Below, piece after piece: positions 1-28,433 of a stretch of DNA of 64,000 nucleotides; positions within the stretch are counted from its first letter, which is position 1, and each line of letters opens with the position of its first letter. This DNA is from a virus (Duplodnaviria; Caudoviricetes). The stretch lies in the IMG/VR virus record IMGVR_UViG_3300028833_000053. One strand, written 5' to 3'. The notes beneath the pieces were generated by a model. That model did not search any database. It was not told where the DNA came from and worked only from the letters and a program-made list of their open reading frames with translations. A program made the position numbers and the translations under genes.

Positions 1-3000
1 GCGCGTTCAATGTACTTTGGCAGAAGTTCCGAATACTTGTCTTGGTATTGCTCTGGGTTCTGCCTCACCTTGTTCACCATCTGGACAAGGCTTGCGCGTT
101 CGGGGCTTCCCGTTATGTTCGCAAGGAAGAGCTTCGTGAAGTCCTTCATTTCGTCAATCTCTGAGAAGTAGCCGTTGCGTATGTCCTTCCATGACTGGTA
201 GTGTATGCCATAGAGACGTCCGTTCAACTCGAAAGCCACGCCCTCAAGAGAACCATCGTCAGCCGGCATTATGCCGGGGTTCTTGAACTTCTTCTTCATC
301 AAGTCCGTCATGGATGCGTTTATCTAGTCCCTTACGGTCTCCGCCTGGTCTTTCTTCATCTTCTCGGGTGGCGTGTTCTTCAAAGCCTGTATGACTTCAT
401 CCGGGAAGTCCGAAGCAGAAACCTCAACTTCCTGAGCGAACTTGTTTATATCGAAGTAGGAGGCTGAGGAATCCGAAAGTTCGGAGCAGGCGAAGTCAAT
501 CACCTTCTGCTTCTGCTCCGGTTCAAGGTCAAACGTCCTCTCCTTCGTCATACCCTTCGCGTCAATCACAACAAGAGAACCCTTTGAACCCAGCTTGTTC
601 GCGTCATAGGTCGTGCCGACATAGGTTATGGTTCCGTTTTTGTCCTTGAACTCGTCGCCATTCGCAAGAAGCTCGCCAATCAACTTCACGCCCTCAACCC
701 CAACTTCGTGAAGGAAACCAGCCATCTTCTTGTTCTGGTGTTGTTCAACGTAGTCGTAGAAGTTCCTTTCGTGTGGGTGTACGCTCTTGTTGGATTCCAC
801 GCCCTGCTTGTCCATCAACCCGGAATATGAAAGCTCCATGAACACCTTGCCGTCCATCCAGGCAACCCTAAAAGGATAGCCGTCAATCTTTGGCGTGGTC
901 TTTATCATCAACGAGGAATCGTTCACTCCCGAAATGAAGTCCTGAAGAAACTGGCGCAAGTCCTTTCCAGTCAATTGGTGGATTTTCGTCATGGCTTGAC
1001 GTGGCGTGTCAATCTCCGCCATGTCCTTCGTGGAACGTATGGATTCGTCGATTTCTTCCGGTGTTTCGTAGTCGCTCACCTTCAATCCAAGGAAATCCTC
1101 CAGTTCGGGTGGTAGGTAGTCTATGCTTCCCTTCTTCAAGGGTCTTTCAATTCCCGTCTTGAGGGATTTCTTGAACTGCTCCGCCCTTGCTGGGTTCTTC
1201 AATATCCCCTGCTTCTTCACGGCTTTCCAGGCATCTTCCCATGTGAGCATGTTTGCTGAATCCACCCCAAACAGGATTTCGCATATTTCGTCCGGGTCGT
1301 TGGAAACAAGTTCACGTCCAACTTCCTTTTCGCCAGAAACATGGATTCCCTCTTCACCCTTCTTGCCCTTCATCAAGGGACGCTCAAAGATCTTCTTGAA
1401 CAGACCACCTTCCTCATGACTGTACGAGTATCTTTCCCATTTCACGGGCTGCTCTTCGTCATAGCCATTCACCATTCCAGTCTCTTCTACCCTGAATCCA
1501 GACACCCGGGCGGTCGCCGTGATTATCTGGTTGCGCACAAGTCCCTTGACGTACTTCTGCCCCTCGATTTCCTCCGGCCCATATTGTCCCCAAGCCTGGA
1601 ACTTGAGGTTGTCAACGGGAATCAGGTCAAGTTGAACGATTTGCCCTTCTTGCTCCCCATCGTCGTTGCTTATGGGATAGCCAACGGAAGTCCCTTGCCA
1701 TTCCCATCTTGGGAAGTTCTTCACGTCAAGACCGTACTTCTTGCCAAACTCTTCCGCAAGGTCAAACCATTCGCTCACGTCCGTTATTCCCTGTTTCTCT
1801 TCAAGGGCTTTCTTTGAGATTGCTATGTCTATGTCACCACTTGAACCACCGTCAAGTTTCTTTCCCGTTGAGCCTAGAAAGGAGATGTCATCGTCGGACA
1901 ATCCGAAAAACTCCTTCACCTTCTGTTTCGCGGAGTCCATCGTGGATTTCGCGTTGCGCTGGTTCAATCTGACGGCGCCCGGTATTCTATGTCCGCCCTC
2001 GTTCATCAACTTGCTTTCGCTTGTTGGCTTCTCCTTCTTTGGCTTTGGGGGTGGTGGCGTGTAGTCCACAAGGTCAAGTTCCTCCAGCATTTCCTGTGGG
2101 ATGGTCATTCCCGCGTTTATTTTTCCGATTATCTTTTCGCGCAGGGAGTCCAAGAAGATTTTCCACTTGTTCGAGTCTTTCGCCCAGACGGCTTCATGCG
2201 CAGCTTTCCAAGTTCCGTCCCACGTCATCAAGTCCTTGCCCTTCACCTTCGGACCAAACATTTTCTTCGCTATTTGGTCGGGATCGTCCGTGACAAGACT
2301 TCTCTTCGCTTTTTCGCCTGACTTGTACACGGTGTCCGTTGCGCCCTTTGGTTGGTTTGTCATGGGTTCACGATAGCACTTCTTGATGTTGAGTCCCTCT
2401 GGCGTGTAGAAGGAATATTCCTCCCATTCCACCATATCCTCCTTTATCCCGTCCTTGCCTTTGACAAGTCCAGTCTTTATAACTTTCACGTCGTCCATGG
2501 CGTGAGCCGCGGCCTCGAATATCAAGTTGCGTATGCAACCCTTTATGTATTGTTGACCTTCAATTTCCTTGGGTGCGTATTGAGACCACACTTGGAACTT
2601 CATGTTCCTTGAAGTCATCATGTCAAGTTGGACAAACTCACCCTCTTGCTTGCCGTCGAAATTCTGAATTGGACACTTTATGGAATAGAGGTTGCCTTTC
2701 AGCCTTGACTCTATTCCCATCTTGTTGAGTATGGGCGTGGCGTATTCCGCTATGGCTTTCGCTTGTTCATCAGCGGTCATAGCGTCCTTGAGATAATCCA
2801 CCTTCGTTGCGTCTATTCCAAGGTCAATGTCACCGCTTGAACCCCCTGCCAGCTTCTTGCCCGTGCTTCCCAATGGCTGCACGTATTTTCGGCTTATGCC
2901 AATCGCCGGAAGTATGGTTTCGTAGATGTACTTCAACGTTGCCGCCACGTTCTCCTAGTGGATTCGCGTTGCGTCATCAAACATGTTTCCACCTTCAAGC

Positions 3001-3083
3001 ATCAAGTTCTTTTCTTCGCCCACAAGGATGTCACGCAAGTCGTTTGCGTCCATTTTGCTCACAAGTTCTTTTATATTGTCCAT
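1..3083 (-). CDS. Multidomain protein: two tandem polbeta-superfamily nucleotidyltransferase-like domains plus a C-terminal ATP-dependent ligase-like (KxDG) domain; runs off the window; code 15
   Basis: ATG at 3083; in-frame TAGs at 2955-2957 and 324-326, frame then open to the window edge. Two copies of LGSTGKKLxGGSSGDIDxxI...VQLD; third domain TPKIDG...IGELL...SLEGVAF (ligase motif I/III/IV-like, motif IV lies after the second TAG). Confidence 0.75.
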
Positions 3084-3115
3084 ACTGTTGTACCCGTAGA
3101 TTTCTGGTTCTATGC

Positions 3116-3147
3116 TATTTACCATTCTTCTTCAGATATGGTAAATA
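3116..3147. promoter_or_regulatory. Divergent pair of late-type promoters (TATTTAC / GTAAATA)
   Basis: TATTTAC 3116-3122 and GTAAATA 3141-3147 between two divergent genes; variant of the T4 late promoter TATAAATA. Confidence 0.7.
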
Positions 3148-19399: not shown

Positions 19400-20224
19400 T
19401 CAATCCTCCTTGTATTCAGGTTCAGGCATGTAGAACATGTCCTTGCCAAGGAACTGGTCAGGTCCGCGGCGCTTGAATTCCGTTGCCTCCATGCGATTCT
19501 GGATTTTCTCATAAGTTCCATCATTGGGGAAGTCCGCCTCGCCATTGGGAAGATAGGGGGCGCGGATGCAGCGGTCAAGCCAATCGTAGCTGAACCCAAT
19601 CTTGTCCTCGTCCGTCTTTCCAGTCAAACCATCCGACGGAACCTTCTCCACAAGGTCTTTCGGAATCTCGTCCATCGTCAAGCCAATGGCAACCACCTCG
19701 TTCTTTGTGAGGTTGATGAGTGGCTTCATGTCGCCGCATTCGTCTCCCCAGCGCGTGAAGTAGCCGGTAAGGCATTCCGAGAGGTTGCTGGTGTTGATGA
19801 CACGTCCGCCAACCGTCTGACTGACAGCATAGAGCGTTGTCATGCGCAGACGTGGCGCGATGTTGATTGTGGTCTGTTCCGACAACTGCGTGTAGTTGTA
19901 CCAGCCCTTTAACGCCCAGAGAACGTTGTTGGCAACGCCCTGGTATGCGTCATTGATGTTGACGGTGATGTTCTGGATTCCAAGTGCCTCGCAGACCTTG
20001 AACGAATCGTCAATGTCTTTCTGCTCCCCATTCGGCATGAGAACGCCAAGAACGCGCTCCTTGCCAATTGCCCTTGCGCAAAGCGCGGCAACAATCGTGG
20101 AGTCCTTTCCTCCCGAAATGCCAATCACCGCCCTGCTTGTCGGACCGTTCTTCTCAAACCAGTCCTTAATCCATTGAACCAGATTGTCCCTGGTCTTTTC
20201 TGCATTGAAGTAATTCATGTTCAT
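19400..20224 (-). CDS. nadE: NH3-dependent NAD+ synthetase
   Basis: ISGGKDS, NIAPRLRMTTLY, NTSNLSE, GYFTRWGD, PSDGL...TDED; no glutaminase domain. Confidence 0.93.
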   Translation of the reverse strand: MNMNYFNAEKTRDNLVQWIKDWFEKNGPTSRAVIGISGGKDSTIVAALCARAIGKERVLGVLMPNGEQKDIDDSFKVCEALGIQNITVNINDAYQGVANNVLWALKGWYNYTQLSEQTTINIAPRLRMTTLYAVSQTVGGRVINTSNLSECLTGYFTRWGDECGDMKPLINLTKNEVVAIGLTMDEIPKDLVEKVPSDGLTGKTDEDKIGFSYDWLDRCIRAPYLPNGEADFPNDGTYEKIQNRMEATEFKRRGPDQFLGKDMFYMPEPEYKED

Positions 20225-20225
20225 T

Positions 20226-21263
20226 TTAGTTTGTCTCCTTTGTCCAATTTGTTTTCCACTTTCTGTCCTGGTTTGGAAATGGGCTACTGCCACGTTCAAT
20301 CCAGGTTTCAACTTTCAATTCATATCCTCTTTTAACCATTGACACAACGAAGTCAATTTCATTCATGATTCCGTATGCCAATCCATTTGCCAATTCCTGT
20401 TCAACATCCATTTTTCAGATTTCCTTTGTATGCACGATGAACTGGAACACCTCTCCGATGTGTTTGAAATACTTGTCCCGGTTGTCAGGATTGTCGTTGC
20501 GGTACGTTGTGAAGGGAATTTCCTTGTCCCCAAGGAACACCAACTGGATGTAGTCGGTGTTGGGCTTGAACTCCCAAAGTCCGTCCGTGTCGTACTGGTA
20601 CGCCTCATCCGGGAACTTCTCCCCAACGTGGAAGATTGTGGCGTAGCACAGGAACCCGCTTCTCTGCCCGCGCAATTTGCTGTAGTCATGGTTGAACATC
20701 ACTATGTGGTCGCTATTCATTTCAGTTTCTCCTCGTCTTTTTTGGATTTCATTCCGATTTGCTTTTAGAATTGCATCACATATTATCTCGCCAATATCAA
20801 TGCCATATCTCTCCTCAAAATATTCATCAAGTTCGGTTGACCAAACTGACTCCAATTTGTTTTCCATTTCAGCTTCTCCCTCTTTTTGTCGGTGGTCGTT
20901 CCATTTTCCTTCCACATCCAGGGCAATACCTGTACTTCTCGTGAAAGGTCTTGATTTTCTCCTTCGCCTCGTTGGTGGAATTCCAATCCGTGTACTCGTT
21001 GAATCCGCAATTTGAGCAGGTGGCATACTCGTATTCAATGGACTCCCAATGCGCTATTGGGGTATAGTTGTCGTTGTCCATTTCAGTTTCCTCAGTTATG
21101 GGAGAATTATTGAGTCGCTTGCGTCAGCAATCTCATCTTTGTCCAGCCACAGACCAACACGCACTTTCATATGACCGTCCCCTTCAGGGTCGCACATGAC
21201 GCTGAGACTTGCATGTTGCCTCAGGTATTCCTTGATGGTGTTTTCAAGTTCTTCCTTTTCCAT
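20226..21263 (-). CDS. Run of four to five small hypothetical ORFs (includes a Zn-ribbon ORF at 20869..21081)
   Basis: Closely packed short ORFs between the Nampt-like gene and nadE; CSNCG...CPGCG. Confidence 0.5.
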
Positions 21264-21264
21264 T

Positions 21265-22734
21265 TCACACTCCCTTGTTGATTCTGTCCCGAATTTCGGC
21301 GAAGGTGGTCTTGTTGAGCATCACGCCATCCTTGAACACCGTCTTGAGCGCACTTGCGTTTTCGTTGAGCATCTCCGTGTGTTCGTCCGTCTCAAAGAGG
21401 TTGCCATTGCTGTCGTACTTCACCCAGACGATTCCCTTGTGGCTCTTCTTCAGCTTGCCGGTGTCCGTCTTGGGGTCTTTGTAGATGAAGTGGAACTTGC
21501 CATTCGTCACGCCAGCGCAGGCTTTCTCTGCAACGCCAAAGGTGTCCCGCGTGTTCACAATCAGCTTCTCGTTGTCAAAGATACCCGTGAAGCAGAACGC
21601 GCCAACTCCGAAATAGACGTTGTTCGCCGCGTACTCGTTCTCTTCCATCCACTCCCAAATGCGGCGCACCGTGAAGAGGGTGCATCCATCGCCAAGGATG
21701 ATTCGGATGTGGTTGTCAAGGACGCGGTAGCCCTTCTCGTTCCAGTAGCCCCCAAAGGTATTCCAAAGCGAATCCAGGGTTTTCGTCACAACCTCAAACT
21801 GGTCTCCGGAGTCCGGACGCACAAGCAGTGTTCCATTGTGCTGGAGGATTTCGCTCTTGAGTGAGGGGATGATGTTCTCCACCAGGTTCCAGTAGTCATA
21901 GGTGTCCGAAACCATGCTGAACGAGGTGTTGGGATAGATTTCCGTGAGCATCCTCTTGATGAACGTGACTTCATCCCCATCAATGGCGTAGTTGCTTGCC
22001 ATCACGCTGTGTTCGGTGCTCACCGCTCCCATGCCAATCTTGTTGTTGGTCACGTCGGCGTCATAGTATTTGTCGATGTAGGGAAGGGCGGGAACGGTGC
22101 TTGTCTTGTCAAAGCAGGTCAGCCACGATGCGCTGCAACGGACGCTCTCGTTCACGCAGCTCATTCCACGCATACCAAAGTCTGCCATAGCCTTGCGCGG
22201 GTCTCCGTTGTCAACGGTCTTGTCATAGAACTCCTTTGCAAGGTCAAGGTACATCTTGGAAATTGTGGCATGGTTGCATGTCTTCCAGAGTTCCGCCTGA
22301 AGTATGCACTCCACCCATTGCACAAGCCACGCGAAGTTGTCGTGCGTGTTCGTCACCTCAATGCAGGGGATGCCCATGTTCACCGAAGTCCCCTCAGGGA
22401 TTGCGCGAATCTGCAGGGGCAGATAACCAAGCCTGTGAAGGTCAATGATGTTCGTGGTGGCGTAGCCGCCCTGTGGCAGTTGAACCTTCATGTACTTCTC
22501 GTACTCCGCAATCACATCGTTGATTTCGCGGTCAAAGAAGTTCTTCTTGAAGTAGTCCACAAGGAACTCTTGGATGAACGCCTGAAGTCCGAAGAACACC
22601 ATCTTGTCGCAGGTCTTCAACATGGATTTGCGCGGCGTCCAATACGAATACAGCTTGGTAAGTCCCGGCGCGTACTGGAGCGGGTGGCAGAACTTGTAGG
22701 TGTCGGCCAGAAGCATTGCGTTTGTGTCAATCAT
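21265..22734 (-). CDS. Nampt/NadV-family phosphoribosyltransferase (Namat-like); predicted nicotinate-preferring
   Basis: ADTYK, DFGMRG, TEHSVM, VSDTYD, VRPDSGD, ILGDG, RDTFG, KDPKTD...KKS.KG; FDKTST in place of Nampt FxGTDT. Confidence 0.9.
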   Translation of the reverse strand: MIDTNAMLLADTYKFCHPLQYAPGLTKLYSYWTPRKSMLKTCDKMVFFGLQAFIQEFLVDYFKKNFFDREINDVIAEYEKYMKVQLPQGGYATTNIIDLHRLGYLPLQIRAIPEGTSVNMGIPCIEVTNTHDNFAWLVQWVECILQAELWKTCNHATISKMYLDLAKEFYDKTVDNGDPRKAMADFGMRGMSCVNESVRCSASWLTCFDKTSTVPALPYIDKYYDADVTNNKIGMGAVSTEHSVMASNYAIDGDEVTFIKRMLTEIYPNTSFSMVSDTYDYWNLVENIIPSLKSEILQHNGTLLVRPDSGDQFEVVTKTLDSLWNTFGGYWNEKGYRVLDNHIRIILGDGCTLFTVRRIWEWMEENEYAANNVYFGVGAFCFTGIFDNEKLIVNTRDTFGVAEKACAGVTNGKFHFIYKDPKTDTGKLKKSHKGIVWVKYDSNGNLFETDEHTEMLNENASALKTVFKDGVMLNKTTFAEIRDRINKGV

Positions 22735-22789
22735 TGTCTTTTTCTCTCTTTGCTTTTTTGAATGTATGATTTTTACTCACAACAGGAAC

Positions 22790-22818
22790 AGTATATCAAA
22801 TCCTGTTCCCATTGTCAA
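22790..22818 (-). promoter_or_regulatory. Sigma70-type promoter before the Nampt-like gene
   Basis: TTGACA-N17-TATACT on the minus strand. Confidence 0.8.
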
Positions 22819-22966
22819 GAGGGGGCAATCCAAGTTCTTGCCGTCTCTTGTTCAAGGCATCTCTGAAGTTGTTCTCTACCTTCTGGTATTTCGCAACTTC
22901 CTTGTCCGTTGCATCACAGTCAATGCAACCATAGTTCGTGAGCAGTTCTTCCTTGTAGTCTCTCAT
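22796..22966 (-). CDS. Small hypothetical protein (56 aa)
   Basis: MRDYKEELLTNYGCIDCDATD...; starts immediately after the prs-like stop. Confidence 0.5.
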   Translation of the reverse strand: MRDYKEELLTNYGCIDCDATDKEVAKYQKVENNFRDALNKRRQELGLPPLDNGNRI

Positions 22967-22967
22967 T

Positions 22968-23795
22968 TCAAAACTCCCTCACAATCTTGATCTTGTGGCT
23001 TGCCACGCCCCGGAAAATCGAGTTGGTGGCGTAGATGGTCTTGATGAGGTCGCCCTGAATCAGCTTGCCCTTCTCCTTGTCCATCACCGAGTTTTCAAGG
23101 TGGGTGACATAGCAGGAGATTTCGTTCGCTCCCAAGTCCTTCAACTTGCAGGCCGAGTAGTAGAAGGTTCCGCCATAGGCGCAGATGTCATCCACCATCA
23201 GAATGTTCTTGCCCTTCACTTCGTCATAGCCCGCAAGTTCAATCCCCTCAATCTTGCCAGTTTTCCAATCGCGCTTCTTGATGCCAAACGCAACTGGAAG
23301 CCCAAGGTCTTTGAGAATTTCGCTATACCGCTTGCAGGCTCCCTCGTCCGGGAAGAAGAGAACGTCAATCTTGCTCAGCGAGGTCTGGAGGATGCGCTTG
23401 ACATCTCCATATACGCATTCAAAGTCCACATACACCCGGTCAAACAACGCCTCGCTGACCGTGCTATGGGGATTGGAAATGCGAACCTCCTCAAACCCAA
23501 GCCAGTTGATTGTGTCGGCAAACGCCTTGAGAGTGAACACCTCGTCAGAGTTCTTCACCCTGTCCATCCGTGCGTTGGGGACATAGGGAAGGTTCAGCCA
23601 GACCTTGCATCCCTTGTTCTTGAGATGCTTCGTGAGCGCAATCAATTGGAACAGCTCTTCGTCATTGTCATAGAGCCAGGTGATGGTGTACTCTTCGCGC
23701 CTCGGGTCAAACTTCAGAAGTTTCGTCCCATCGGGGAACGCCGTGGGCTTCAGAATCTCCTCTTCAGGAGCAATGTTGCTGTCAATTCTAATCAT
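22968..23795 (-). CDS. Ribose-phosphate pyrophosphokinase family protein (Adps-like)
   Basis: FPDG, PYVPNARMDR, NPHS, FPDEGA, KKRDWKTG, VDDICAYGGTF; phage-type Prs next to a Nampt-like gene. Confidence 0.88.
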   Translation of the reverse strand: MIRIDSNIAPEEEILKPTAFPDGTKLLKFDPRREEYTITWLYDNDEELFQLIALTKHLKNKGCKVWLNLPYVPNARMDRVKNSDEVFTLKAFADTINWLGFEEVRISNPHSTVSEALFDRVYVDFECVYGDVKRILQTSLSKIDVLFFPDEGACKRYSEILKDLGLPVAFGIKKRDWKTGKIEGIELAGYDEVKGKNILMVDDICAYGGTFYYSACKLKDLGANEISCYVTHLENSVMDKEKGKLIQGDLIKTIYATNSIFRGVASHKIKIVREF

Positions 23796-23827
23796 AGGGT
23801 TTTTGCCTTTCTTGGGTTGATGGCAAC

Positions 23828-23856
23828 AGTATATCATATCAGATTCCCGTTGTCAA
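23828..23856 (-). promoter_or_regulatory. Sigma70-type promoter before the prs-like gene
   Basis: TTGACA-N17-TATACT on the minus strand. Confidence 0.8.
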
Positions 23857-23874
23857 TAGCCCTTGATAACATAG

Positions 23875-24429
23875 TCAAATTACATCAATCTGGCACATTT
23901 TCATGGTCAGAAGGGCGGCTTTGTTGCTTTCGGGGGTCACTCCTGCCACGCAGTCCTTGCGTACCGTGATTTTGCTGTTGGGAAAGTTGGCGCGTAGCAT
24001 AAGGGCGTTTGAGACAACGCAGATGTCTGTGCAGAATCCAACGATTGTGAATTCATAGTCGGTCTCAAAGGTGGTGATGCCATTCCACTGGCAGTTTGCT
24101 TTTATGTGGTCGATGAGCCAGGTTGAGCCAAATGTAGGCTTCTCGAAGATTTCGGCCTTTGCCTTGCGGAGAAGTGTTTCAACCTCTTCGGGTATTTTCC
24201 ATCCATGGGTGCAGTAAATGCAATGTTCAACTGGAAGTTTCTGCCCCTCAAGGGTTTTCAGATAGTCCTTGCCGTGGGTGTCCATCGTAACATAGGTTTC
24301 ATTGTACTTCTCAGTCTTGAGCAGTTTGACGATGTTGGGCAATGCCTTGATTGCCTCTTCGTTGCGCAATGCGCCTGTGATGAAGTCGTTTTGGACATCT
24401 ATCACAATCAGTATCTTCTTCGTAGCCAT
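23875..24429 (-). CDS. pncA: Nicotinamidase (isochorismatase family)
   Basis: IDVQNDF, DTH, HC...GW, KPTFGS, GFCTDICV catalytic motifs; NAD-salvage context. Confidence 0.85.
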   Translation of the reverse strand: MATKKILIVIDVQNDFITGALRNEEAIKALPNIVKLLKTEKYNETYVTMDTHGKDYLKTLEGQKLPVEHCIYCTHGWKIPEEVETLLRKAKAEIFEKPTFGSTWLIDHIKANCQWNGITTFETDYEFTIVGFCTDICVVSNALMLRANFPNSKITVRKDCVAGVTPESNKAALLTMKMCQIDVI

Positions 24430-24498
24430 TCTGGAAATTCCTCCATTGTTCTGGTTTTAGGTTTGCCCACGCAATCCCGCATGGGTTGTTCACCATCA

Positions 24499-24527
24499 AT
24501 TATACCAAATCTCCGGGAAAATGTAAA
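24499..24527 (-). promoter_or_regulatory. Sigma70-type promoter before pncA
   Basis: TTTACA-N17-TATAAT on the minus strand. Confidence 0.7.
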
Positions 24528-24608: not shown

Positions 24609-27600
24609 TCAATTCCTTGGAGTGAACGAGTTTGGACCGGCCTTGGCGTTCCTCTCCAACTGCTCATAACTCAATGCACCATTCCAGATGCGCACCTCGT
24701 CGTAGGTGGCTTTCGCGTCCGAATATCTGGAATTCTGACCATTGTAAGCGTTTTCCTTCGGCTTGAACTGCGGCTCCTTGGAGATGTTGAGGCTGAACGA
24801 AGGGGTCTGGCTTTCAAGATGGGATAGCGTCCAATCCGGCACCGTATGCGTTCCCGAAGCCTCCACTTCGCCTGTCGTCGCGTTGCGCCGCGCGAAATTC
24901 ACCACGGTGCCGCCGTTGCCGTCCGCCTTAAAGGTGAAGGAGAAGTGGTACATCGTACCGACGGCGGCTGGCATGATGTCGCTCTTGCTACTGTAGGACG
25001 TAAGATCACCCTTCTTCACGATGAAGATGTCGTTTCCTTGAGCGTTTTCGTCGCTCCAATAATAGGCAAAGCACTGCTTGCTTTGGCTATAGCCGACATA
25101 GTAGTTATTGGGCGCGCCATACTCGAACATGATCTCCGCAGCAGACAGGGCATTGTTCTTCGCCCAGATTTCAATCGTCGTGTCGCCGCCGTCCGTGAGG
25201 TTCTTGCCTAGATCGACCGATCCCCAGCCCCAAGCTCCCCCCGAGAAATTGACCTGCCCATTTGCAAAAGTGGTTCTATTTCCTCCCCAAACACTCCCGT
25301 TTTCACTCCCGCCGACAGTATCGGTGTAGTCGCCGTTGTTGAAGCTCCAGCGGTGTGCCACTGTAAACCAAGTTGCAGTGCTTGTGACTCCTGCGGAAAT
25401 CAGTTTCTGCTTCACCTATTCAGAATCTCCTCCGTTTGGAAAGATGATGACCGAATTGACGTTGGTGCATCCCAAGAATGCGCTTTCCCCAATGCTTTCC
25501 ACAGAATCAGGTATTCTAATGTCCTTGATCTAAGTGCATCCATTGAAAGCGTATACCCCAATGGTATTCACGCCAGATGGAAGCGCAATTTCTTCAATTT
25601 TGCCGCATCCATCAAATGCGTGGCCTCCAATTGTCGTGAGGTTTCCGGGCATAGTGATTGATGCAAGGTTGGTGCATTCACTGAACACGTTAGTTCCAAT
25701 GTTGGACACCGTGTTTGGAAGGAGGATTTCATTGAGTGTCGGGCACTTGTAGAAAGCCCCATTGTCAAGTCCGGTGACGGCCTCGCCCAATGACACCCTC
25801 GTTATGCCAGGTTCGTTCCATTCACCATCAGTTGATTTCTGAAGTCCCGCATTTTTGGTGTTCTGCTTTGTCACCACGCCACCGAACTCATAGTCTTTCG
25901 TCGTTCCGTCCTGGAACGTTATCTTCGCCTGTGCAGACCAATTTGGTGTTTCGTATGTTATGTCATCTCTTGTGATGAGTACATACGGGATTACATTCAA
26001 GTTGGCAGAAGCCATACCTGATTGTCCACCAGACATAGTGCTAATATAGGCATATGTATCGCCTGTTGTTTGATATTTGAACTTGACGGTCGCTGGGCCG
26101 TTTATGGAAAGTGGATTGTTGCCGTTGATGCTGACAAGGAAGAAGTCGGATTTGCCCAAGCCGTTCCTTATTGCTTTCAAAGTTGTCACTCCCGGTCTGT
26201 TTACTATTACAGTGGTCTCCCCGGATACCTTATTGACCTTTATGTTGTCAATGCTACTGGTATCGCCAGATGGCAATTTGCTTACATCATTGAGTTCAAT
26301 CGTGAACACTGGATTACTGCAATCTTCTCTCACAGTGAAAGTCCTGCTTTCTTTCATGGAGAACACAAGGTTGGTGGTTGTTCCCATGTCAACAACCTAT
26401 GGCGAAAACTCGCGCATTCTCGCTGGCTGGTAGTTGCTCCACGAATAGATGTTCACGTTTTGAGCTGTCCATTGCTGGTTGGTTCTCCATTCGCCATATA
26501 GGGCGTCTGGGACGATGACGTTCACTCTGTGGGAAATCCCGTCAAATGGGTCAAGTGGCATGCCGCCGCCGGTCACAAGTTTCACGATGTTGGTGACACC
26601 ATACCCGTATCCATCGCAGAAGAACAGCTCCTCAAGGTTGACGCAGTTGTGGAAACACCACCTCCATACCTCCTCGCACGATGGAGCGACGACCTTCTTT
26701 AGATGGTTGCAGCTGCTAAACGTGATGCTTCCGAGAATCTTGGCATTTGGCAGTCTAATCTCCTCCATTGAATTGCAGTACGCAAAACCGTCGTTTCTGT
26801 TCTGCGGAAGACCAGCCTGTGCCTTTGTATGATCCACTGAATCCAGATTCACGCGGGAAAGGGCATGACATGAGAAAAACGTCTCGAACCCTATGCTATC
26901 TGCGCTAAATAGGTCAGCATACCCAAGTTGGTTGCATTGCTTGAACGCCCTCTCTCCAATTGTGTTGGCAAGTGGGAAACGCGCCTCCCTGAGCTTCCGA
27001 CAGTACATGAACGCCTCGTTTCCAATTTTCTGTAGGTTCTTCGCGTCAAACTCCTGAAGATTGTGGCAGTTGTACATGGACTGGTACCCGATTGACACAA
27101 GGTTTGGAGCGTAGACCTTCTTGAGGTTTTCGCTTCCATAGAACGCATAGTCTGCGATGTTGGTTGCAGATGGAAGATGGATTTCGGTCAACTGACACAT
27201 TCTAAACATGTTTTTGTCCACATTGAGCATGGACGGAAGTGAAAGCGATGTTACCGAACTGTTATTGAATGGACTGAACCAAAATGTGAATTCGTAGTTC
27301 TTGGCCTCCTCTGGATGTATTTCCACCCAGTCTTCAATACTCGCATCATATCCCCAGGACTAGTTCTGCAAATTTGTCGCAGAGCTGAAATCCACTTTCT
27401 TTACCTTGTAGTCCTGCTCAAGGAGCGCAAATGGCACCGTCTCAAGTTTTGGCAGGAAAATTGAACGAAGATTTTCACACTCATAGAACGCCTATGCGCC
27501 ATCTATGCTGACGAGATTTGGAAAATCCACCACTTCCAGCGAAGTGCAGTCCATAAAATGGTTCCCCTGTGGCGTAACCTCTCCATCGAATAGAACACCT

Positions 27601-28433
27601 CCCATTCTGGTCAGATTTGGCATGTTCACGTATTTCAGAGACCCGTCGTATATGAACGCATTTATGTCAATGTTCTCGACAATTGGGAAATTCGCAATCA
27701 AGAGGTTCGGACACACTCCTAGACCTTGCTACTGGATGTTCGTGACAGTCGGCCCGTCAACTTGAACAAGATTGTCAAACCTAGTAAGTCCACCCACGCC
27801 TATCTGGGTTATGTTGGTTCCAGCGTAGAAACCAACAAGACGCTGGCGGAGGTTTGTCATTGCATATGTCTGTCCATCATGCTCGAACTGGGTGGCCAAG
27901 TTCAGCGCGCCATCTTCCCCAACTGGCATGTCAACCTCCATTCTCGTCCCGTCAGACATGACAAGCACGGACTTCTCAAGCGGCGCCCCTGCCCTAATGT
28001 GTCCAGACGCAAGAATGGCCTTCTTCAACGTCTCCTCGGTGACAGCAGACTTCTTCAGATCGGCTATCGCAGCGAATCCAAACTAGTCGTCGTCAGAAAA
28101 CACTGGCTTCGTCAGGTCGGCATTCATCAGCGTATTGGTTGGAGTGGTAGCACGGACGCGCACTGGCTGCCCAACTGCTCTTGGTTTCAGAAGGTTCCTG
28201 GCTGGATTTTCCTTCTGTATGGAAGTGTCGTCCAAAAGCCTCAACCGATGGGCAGAAACAGTATTCTTGAGTTTTTCAAGGATGCTTTCTGGAATCTCAC
28301 GATGTGGGATATAGCCATCATCAGGCAGTGTTGAATTTTCCACATACTGACTCTGACCCAGTAGTGTAGACGACACTGTGGCCAGCAAAATCCATGCGGC
28401 CAACATGTTTTTCATCATTCTTCTTTTTTTCAT
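24609..28433 (-). CDS. Signal-peptide-bearing BspA-type leucine-rich-repeat protein with C-terminal LamG-like domain (1274 aa, code 15); probable adhesin/receptor-binding protein
   Basis: Seven in-frame TAGs (28083, 27729, 27492, 27360, 26397, 25530, 25416) join six track ORFs; LRR consensus (IGxxAFxxCxxLxxIxxP) continues across TAGs; C-terminal HRWSF...YDEVRIWNGALS. Confidence 0.8.

Follow-up and report, generated by a model that had tools for sequence, protein, structure and literature searches.

The window analyzed here is a 64,000-nucleotide stretch of DNA (bases 23500-87499, reverse strand) of IMG/VR virus record IMGVR_UViG_3300028833_000053, and its positions 19,400 to 24,527 carry a cassette of four genes that encode a PncA-like nicotinamidase, a Prs-like protein, a Nampt/Namat-like transferase and an NAD+ synthetase (NadE). 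On balance, we lean to the view that this cassette specifies a nicotinate-type version of the NARP1 pathway of phages, in which NAD+ would be rebuilt via nicotinic acid adenine dinucleotide (NaAD) without an adenylyltransferase. NARP1, which consists of Adps and Namat, has been described in the phages SPbetaL1, Bas63 and ICP1 and in Paenibacillus foliorum (bioRxiv 10.1101/2024.02.11.579819; PMC12774641; PMC13586617).

Under the proposed scheme, a host defense NADase would split NAD+ into ADP-ribose and nicotinamide. The PncA-like enzyme would then deamidate nicotinamide to nicotinate (step 1), the Adps-like enzyme would convert ADP-ribose to ADP-ribose pyrophosphate (ADPR-PP) at the expense of ATP (step 2), the Namat-like transferase, with Ser212 and Ser239 in its pocket, would join nicotinate and ADPR-PP directly into NaAD (step 3), and NadE would amidate NaAD to NAD+ (step 4). 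From protein sequences and gene neighborhoods, we infer which substrates steps 2 and 3 use, that NaAD is the product, and the role in counter-defense.

The identities of the enzymes, their intact catalytic residues, the switch in the transferase pocket, the descent from NARP1 and the linkage to PncA and NadE are established by sequence analysis and comparison of loci. An initial annotation of the window had proposed this closed deamidated route, which gains comparative support from an Asp to Ser replacement in the pocket, the confinement of such transferases to one nested clade, the exclusive association of that clade with PncA and NadE, the nesting of the Prs-like protein among Adps proteins, and the lack of a gene of the nicotinamide mononucleotide adenylyltransferase (NMNAT) fold in most complete phage genomes with the cassette. 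The four genes named in that annotation are present, all co-oriented on the minus strand:

23875..24429, minus strand: PncA-like nicotinamidase, 184 aa, isochorismatase fold (Pfam PF00857, E = 6.6e-19)
22968..23795 (longest open reading frame (ORF) from 23837), minus strand: Adps-like homologue of Prs, 275 aa when counted from Met15 (phrog_619, 218 bits)
21265..22734, minus strand: Nampt/Namat-like transferase, 489 aa (SPbetaL1 Namat, 9w5x/9w5w, E = 1.5e-100)
19400..20224, minus strand: NadE, NH3-dependent, short single-domain form, 274 aa from Met30 (TIGR00552, Pfam NAD_synthase)

The pyridine pocket and adenine clamp of the transferase

Among solved structures, the transferase is most similar to SPbetaL1 Namat (9w5x/9w5w, E = 1.5e-100), followed by NadV of Haemophilus ducreyi (E = 7e-85; PDB entry 9ke8) and human NAMPT (E about 1e-50); a statement that it is closer to Namat than to Nampt holds only for SPbetaL1 Namat compared with eukaryotic NAMPT. 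A fold search started with the model of the transferase retrieves Namat, H. ducreyi NadV and human NAMPT with nearly equal scores (template modeling (TM) score 0.86-0.92; 0.90 for SPbetaL1 Namat) and does not discriminate the donor substrate. The NadV-type model PRK09198 matches above its cut-off (441.6 vs 405), and the PncB models remain far below theirs (PRK12484, 25.1 vs 330; PRK09243, 21.9 vs 503). The Namat catalytic core is intact: Phe186, Arg189, His242, Arg306 and Asp308, which were compared with Phe189, Arg192, the catalytic histidine, Arg306 and Asp308 in SPbetaL1 numbering, are invariant in an alignment of 53 sequences.

The pocket that accommodates the pyridine substituent is different. 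Asp215 of SPbetaL1 Namat, the equivalent of Asp219 of human NAMPT, forms a hydrogen bond with the amide of nicotinamide, and the D215A replacement lowers NAD+ synthesis approximately 8-fold (PMC12774641); substrate specificity of NAMPT is set by Asp219, as Khan et al. are cited in PMC7096376. In the window transferase, Asp215 aligns with Ser212, and Ser239 occupies the position of the pocket residue Ala242. Among the related loci, position 212 is Ser in 80 of 81, with Ala in the remaining one. Group-specific columns computed for 124 representatives separate the family into two groups, with Asp at position 212 in 84 of 84 Asp-type sequences vs Ala, Ser or Val in all 40 others (hereinafter, the non-Asp group), and with Ala at position 239 in 84 of 84 Asp-type sequences vs Ser in 39 of 40 non-Asp ones. 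In the same set, the histidine equivalent to human His191 is lost in the non-Asp group, and segregation at this and the neighboring positions is near-perfect. This segregation at the Asp215, Ala242 and His191-equivalent columns indicates that the pyridine pocket was rebuilt, in the sense expected if the substituent were a carboxylate. The D219S mutant of NAMPT reportedly accepts nicotinic acid.

The published adenine-clamp motif of Namat includes aromatic residues (PMC12774641), and the early-branching non-Asp lineages keep such a motif (e.g., GSYTYQYNTRD). In the window protein, the corresponding segment reads G-A-F-C-F-T, a 9-residue insertion, V-N-T-R-D, where only positions 3 and 5 are aromatic. 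The insertion, which is predicted to fold as a beta-hairpin (residues 384-393; predicted model, predicted local distance difference test score 95.6), is a derived trait of a subclade of 31 representatives that includes the window protein. The third residue of the clamp loop, where a stacking Arg, Lys or Tyr is expected, is Met38 in the window protein vs Arg40 in SPbetaL1 Namat.

Origin of the non-Asp transferases

Two phylogenetic trees of the transferase (FastTree, n=126; IQ-TREE with a mixture model and quick search, n=57) yielded results that agree. The non-Asp transferases, with 40 representatives at 50% identity, form a single clade (support 97) within a larger group (support 97-99), the remaining members of which, the sister group, are Namats of the SPbetaL1/Tsamsa type. 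The Namats of ICP1 and of Felixounavirus (Bas63-like) branch outside that group, and the KVP40-type NadV is the outgroup. Given this nesting, the non-Asp clade arose within the ADPR-PP-using enzymes. Thus, comparison of both enzymes with Adps and Namat in trees, mentioned in the initial annotation as a check, comes out in favor of the scheme, with the transferase nested among Namats and the Prs-like protein among Adps proteins.

The family is large, and its members derive from metagenomes of gut and rumen. A search with the window protein detects more than 7,900 protein clusters (90% identity) at E < 1e-10, and the 120 matches listed are 59-92% identical to it.

Genomic association with PncA and NadE

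The order PncA-like, Prs-like, transferase, NadE is found in all 80 IMG/VR loci retrieved with the window protein and in GenBank MT835544.1, and the pairing of Prs-like and Nampt-like genes in 91 related loci. When every fetched locus flanked on either side by 3 kb or more is counted, all three partners (PncA-like, Prs-like and NadE) accompany the transferase in 78 of 82 non-Asp loci, many of which are close kin; among the Asp-type loci, a Prs-like gene is present in 9 of 10, and PncA or NadE in none. The linkage also holds in seven separate lineages below 50% identity (P0127, P0135, P0139, P0142, P0158, P0164 and P0181). Single-protein scans of viral contigs recovered only 5 loci for P0127 and 10 for P0163. 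The contexts of P0136 and P0265, which end at contig edges, carry little information on PncA or NadE.

The cassette is also present in phAss-1 (L116, OQ749652.1, 96860-101298), a deposited TAG-recoded phage from the human gut. In this record, NadE is labeled as a hypothetical protein; the phAss-1 paper mentions the nicotinamidase without comment and does not discuss the pathway.

A chromosomal version of the cassette is encoded on a bacterial contig (L107:128-4614), which contains genes for an NrtR-like protein, a Prs-like protein, an isochorismatase, an Ala-type Namat-like protein in which the clamp motif is intact, and NadE, followed by a chemotaxis receptor. The NrtR-like protein scores under the cut-off of the model for the ADP-ribose-responsive repressor NrtR. 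Under the reading that we favor, the bacterial users of the NaAD route may be controlled by an ADP-ribose-responsive repressor.

As a separate observation, two non-Asp lineages that are unrelated to each other encode YAcAr-domain proteins (PF10686) in the vicinity of the cassette (L108:14066-14479 and L109:7569-7919).

The Prs-like protein

The Prs-like protein falls slightly short of the canonical model (TIGR01251, 108.6 vs the cut-off of 113) and shares 29-34% identity with the Adps proteins of ICP1, Tsamsa and Felixounavirus, compared with 23% for E. coli Prs. When aligned with E. coli Prs, it lacks the last ~25 residues, as do these three Adps proteins. A defining signature of Adps, according to PMC13586617, is that the alpha11-alpha12 module at the C-terminus of canonical phosphoribosyl pyrophosphate (PRPP) synthetases (PRPS) is lost. 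The catalytic and acceptor residues of Adps, Arg87, His121, Asp161, Lys185, Asp212 and Asp213 (ICP1 numbering), are retained in the window protein and in every Prs-like partner of a non-Asp transferase. The archaeal class III PRPS are short as well, so that a missing C-terminal module does not rule them out. The PP loop, which in Adps serves the donor ATP, reads DDICAYGGTF in the window protein and resembles the Bacillus-phage type (DDLSSYGGTF); it does not contain the Asp216 found in ICP1 (CDGAAS) and differs from the canonical DDMIDTGGT.

In the Prs tree, the Prs-like partners fall within the Adps proteins and adjoin the Tsamsa type, and the ICP1 and Felixounavirus Adps lie outside; the tree was rooted with a single canonical Prs, that of E. 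coli, and has moderate support. The PDB comparison of this protein covered canonical PRPS. Bracketing by assayed Adps proteins in the tree makes the Prs-like protein a candidate for the synthesis of ADPR-PP from ADP-ribose.

The Prs-like protein (22968-23795) and the transferase (21265-22734) also match, respectively, the first and the second half of phrog_12872 (547 positions), which indicates that fused Prs-Nampt proteins exist in phages.

The nicotinamidase and the NAD+ synthetase

The best solved relatives of the PncA-like protein are the pyrazinamidase/nicotinamidase of Pyrococcus horikoshii (1ILW) and the entry 5ZN8. An alignment with these two and with E. coli PncA identifies the catalytic triad Asp11, Lys97 and Cys137 together with the metal site Asp50, His52 and His69. 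Asp11 and Cys137, like the metal ligands, do not vary across the cassette homologues and E. coli PncA; Lys97 is retained among the cassette homologues only. The Asp-His-His metal site distinguishes nicotinamidases from other hydrolases of the isochorismatase fold. The NCBIfam PncA model (NF008623) is not reached (18.3 bits vs the cut-off of 174). The protein is a divergent nicotinamidase; the name follows from the fold, the residues and the closest relative of known structure.

NadE is recognized with confidence (TIGR00552, 169.6 vs the cut-off of 63.65; Pfam NAD_synthase, E = 1.2e-51). It contains the SGGKDS motif of ATP pyrophosphatases and consists of a single domain, without a glutaminase domain. 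Its best solved relatives are 2E18 from P. horikoshii, annotated as an ordinary NAD+ synthetase, and then 3FIU, both short enzymes.

Adenylyltransferases and the ribosyl donor

The initial annotation noted that NadD, NadM and NMNAT are missing from the cluster and the window. Within these limits the statement is correct, with no NMNAT/NadD-type domain (PF01467) found in either, but it does not extend to the surroundings. The complete genome encodes two PF01467 domains. One is a 135-aa TagD-like protein, similar to glycerol-3-phosphate cytidylyltransferases (TIGR01518, 140.8 bits, under the cut-off), which is encoded far from the cassette (G000:C1:262702-263070; L001:1483-1890, minus strand) by a gene with one in-frame TAG. 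The other belongs to a 1613-aa protein (window 1-3125, minus strand, continuing beyond the window start; L003:76-4917), the gene for which starts at 3125 and includes two in-frame TAGs. Its nucleotidyltransferase domain (HxGH...ISxxxxR, residues 1102-1251) lies ~185-630 bases outside the window. The protein is conserved in the two closest phage relatives (90% and 68% identity). A fold search with this domain retrieves phosphopantetheine adenylyltransferase (PPAT), NadR, NadM and archaeal NMNAT with similarly low TM scores of 0.4-0.5; the motifs and the predicted structure assign it to the PPAT/NMNAT superfamily without singling out a substrate.

A candidate for a hidden adenylyltransferase within the cassette, a 207-aa ORF between the transferase and NadE genes, was rejected: it matches nothing in Pfam, NCBIfam or PHROG, and the DNA resolves into ORFs of 70 and 150 aa.

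Among the 10 cassette-bearing virus records, 7 lack a PF01467 match, and 5 of these 7 are 94-100% complete. The co-occurrence survey that the initial annotation had in mind thus supports the usual absence of nadD and nadM, but not without exception, given that a NadM-type NMNAT adjoins the cassette in two lineages. In one of these, a 191-aa NadM-type NMNAT (GRFQxFHKGH...ISGTMLR) is encoded directly after NadE (L062:12042-12614). The same gene occupies the same place in L064, L067, L069, L076, L079 and L082-L084, which together constitute one closely knit phage lineage, the only one with an adenylyltransferase beside the cassette among 80 viral loci. In the other, L114, which is the earliest-branching non-Asp lineage, a NadM-type NMNAT precedes the Prs-like gene.

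These exceptions bear on the main alternative, less probable than the NaAD route, namely salvage of the Preiss-Handler type via nicotinic acid mononucleotide (NaMN), whereby PncA would supply nicotinate, the Prs-like protein PRPP and the transferase NaMN, which host NadD or a phage NMNAT would convert to NaAD and NadE to NAD+. To our knowledge, NadD is nearly universal in bacteria, so that the phage could depend on the host enzyme. Besides the NMNAT genes adjacent to the cassette in the L062 lineage and in L114, several observations speak for this route and weigh against direct synthesis of NaAD. The genome itself encodes a candidate HxGH nucleotidyltransferase domain of the PPAT/NMNAT fold. 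The clamp of the window subclade is remodeled, with Met38 in place of the stacking Arg40 and a hairpin in place of the aromatic residue at position 7 of the motif, which makes it less certain that the adenine moiety of ADPR-PP is bound in this subclade than in the early-branching lineages. Finally, Namat retains PRPP-dependent activity in vitro (PMC12774641), which would leave the PRPP route chemically open.

Further points weigh against the NaAD route. The Asp to Ser/Ala switch arose once, so that the link with PncA and NadE represents one event, retained over a deep and diverse clade rather than gained repeatedly. The Prs tree, with its one canonical outgroup and moderate support, limits the confidence in the Adps assignment. 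The second-best solved relative of NadE, 3FIU, might also point in a different direction.

Other evidence is harder to reconcile with the NaMN route. The Prs-like protein groups among Adps proteins, not with E. coli Prs, and shares the missing C-terminal module with them. The transferase descends from within the assayed ADPR-PP-using Namats, and the early non-Asp lineages keep an aromatic adenine clamp that a PRPP-utilizing enzyme would not need. A KVP40-type NadV locus contains no adjoining Prs gene, so phage enzymes that use PRPP do not usually come with a gene for PRPP supply. The absence of an NMNAT-fold protein in 7 of 10 cassette-bearing virus records also counts against this route, given that NARP2 phages bring their own (PMC13464706). 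Taken together, the descent of both central enzymes from NARP1, the clamp retained in the early branches, the consistent occurrence of an Adps-like gene and the fact that an NMNAT is usually missing favor ADPR-PP as the ribosyl donor; the residual PRPP activity of Namat, the remodeled clamp and the occasional NMNAT favor PRPP.

It is quite improbable that the cassette is an ordinary NARP1, in which nicotinamide and ADPR-PP would yield NAD+ directly and PncA and NadE would be co-located accessories boosting host pathways. The adjacent Adps-like and Namat-like genes, both of NARP1 descent, would fit this explanation, as does the existence of phage genomes that encode NadE without the cassette. 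However, the nicotinamide-binding Asp is absent in 40 of 40 representatives, with Ala242 switching along, and PncA would consume the substrate, nicotinamide. Only next to the non-Asp form do PncA and NadE occur (78 of 82 vs 0 of 10 loci). Thus, the pocket switch, this exclusive company and the crippling effect of D215A on SPbetaL1 Namat make use of nicotinamide by the transferase unlikely.

Hardly probable at all is a Francisella-like order of reactions, in which the transferase would make NaMN, NadE would act as an NMN (nicotinamide mononucleotide) synthetase and an NMNAT would complete NAD+: NadE is of the short type with 3FIU, which we take to be the Francisella NMN synthetase that prefers NaMN, as its second-best solved relative, and NadM-type NMNATs occur in two lineages, but most cassette-bearing genomes lack an NMNAT, host NadD enzymes generally prefer NaMN over NMN, and 2E18, the closest relative of known structure, carries the annotation of an ordinary NAD+ synthetase.

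Genome and gene layout

The source record is a 433,895-base virus genome with direct terminal repeats that is rated complete; the cassette is carried by a gut or rumen phage of 434 kb. Megablast of the region against GenBank phages gave no match, and no tRNA genes were found in the window. Reading TAG as a sense codon unites many broken frames, e.g., three leucine-rich-repeat ORFs into one 1274-aa protein with 7 TAGs; therefore, the phage uses a TAG-recoded code. The BspA-type leucine-rich-repeat gene in question occupies window 24609-28433 (minus strand; 1274 aa, 7 in-frame TAGs), and several other long genes are alike.

The initial annotation described the cassette genes as TAG-free and hence translatable early by an unmodified host. 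Indeed, none of the four contains an in-frame TAG, and each ends with TGA. The early-specific part of the claim does not follow, because the 1209-aa tail sheath gene, located just upstream on the opposite strand, is also free of in-frame TAG; a lack of TAG does not single out early genes.

The other features of the region are as follows:

24499..24527, minus strand: sigma70-like promoter of the PncA-like gene (TTTACA, 17-base spacer, TATAAT, TG extended -10; 11/12)
23828..23856, minus strand: sigma70-like promoter of the Adps-like gene (TTGACA, 17-base spacer, TATACT, TG; 11/12)
22790..22818, minus strand: sigma70-like promoter of the transferase gene (TTGACA, 17-base spacer, TATACT, TG; 11/12)
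21096..21263, minus strand: small ORF, 55 aa (phrog_6906, unknown function, E = 1.8e-5)
20869..21081, minus strand: small ORF, 70 aa, two CxxC pairs, zinc-ribbon-like from sequence reading (no PHROG match)
20415..20867, minus strand: ORF, 150 aa, or 207 aa in its longest frame, which starts with TTG 21038 (no Pfam, NCBIfam or PHROG match)
20226..20411, minus strand: small ORF, 61 aa, overlapping an improbable N-terminal extension of NadE

The near-consensus sigma70 promoters previously reported for the first three genes are all there: three promoter-like sites on the minus strand, each matching the consensus at 11 of 12 positions and carrying a TG extended -10 element, directly precede these genes; the best such site upstream of NadE matches at only 9 of 12. 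The Prs-like gene probably starts at Met15 (23795), because the -10 hexamer of its promoter ends at 23828, within the longer ORF, and the promoter overlaps the first ATG. Similarly, NadE, for which the longest ORF begins with TTG at 20311, probably starts at Met30 (20224), because the 61-aa ORF overlaps the upstream extension.

The cassette genes are not contiguous, with the four small ORFs (55, 70, 150 and 61 aa) between the transferase and NadE. Homologues of the 150-aa ORF occupy the same position in loci L005-L008, that is, in the closest relatives only.

Implications and comparison with known systems

If the NaAD reading is correct, the cassette would represent a fourth phage strategy for restoring NAD+ and a new NAD reaction, in which nicotinate and ADPR-PP would directly yield NaAD. 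That such an undescribed reaction is carried out by a carboxylate-switched descendant of Namat in gut and rumen phages and in some bacteria is, in our estimate, somewhat better than an even bet. It would suggest that NAD+-depleting immunity is widespread in hard-to-culture anaerobic commensals. That NaAD escapes cleavage by defense NADases is pure speculation. If the NaMN route is the right one, the cassette would be a more ordinary phage salvage pathway, assembled from NARP1 parts.

For annotation purposes, Ser or Ala at the position of Asp215 and Ser at that of Ala242, combined with neighboring PncA and NadE genes, separate this form from ordinary NARP1; records of the phAss-1 type currently label the cassette genes piecemeal. 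A literature search found descriptions of NARP1, NARP2 and NARP3, and none that links PncA, NadE, nicotinate or NaAD to either NARP1 or Namat; a search for NARP4 returned nothing relevant.

The closest known system is NARP1, with which the cassette shares the adjacent Prs-like and Nampt-like phage genes, the position of both proteins in trees, the intact catalytic cores and the Adps-type C-terminal loss, as well as the presumed job of rebuilding NAD+ from NADase products. Unlike NARP1, the clade described here has Ser or Ala for Asp215 and Ser for Ala242, and the window subclade has a clamp with a 9-residue hairpin and no stacking Arg. Genes for a nicotinamidase and NadE accompany the pair, whereas none of the 10 NARP1 loci has them, and the likely product would be NaAD rather than NAD+, so that a fourth enzyme is needed.

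As in NARP2 (Nampt and a bifunctional Nmnat, KVP40 type), a transferase of the Nampt family would recycle the pyridine base during NAD+ depletion. NARP2, however, proceeds via NMN and a phage NMNAT, and the present cluster lacks an NMNAT, includes a Prs-like gene and encodes a transferase that does not appear to be of the nicotinamide type. NARP3, a PnuC-like transporter with a NadR-like enzyme, is likewise a phage module that restores NAD+, but it (PMC13464706) imports nicotinamide riboside with unrelated enzymes, and the cluster contains no such genes.

Finally, the cassette resembles the bacterial Preiss-Handler salvage pathway (PncA, PncB, NadD, NadE) in starting with a nicotinamidase, ending with NadE and apparently proceeding through deamidated intermediates. 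It differs from that pathway in that the transferase belongs to the Nampt/Namat family and not to PncB, NadD is absent from the cluster, and a dedicated Adps-like kinase is present.

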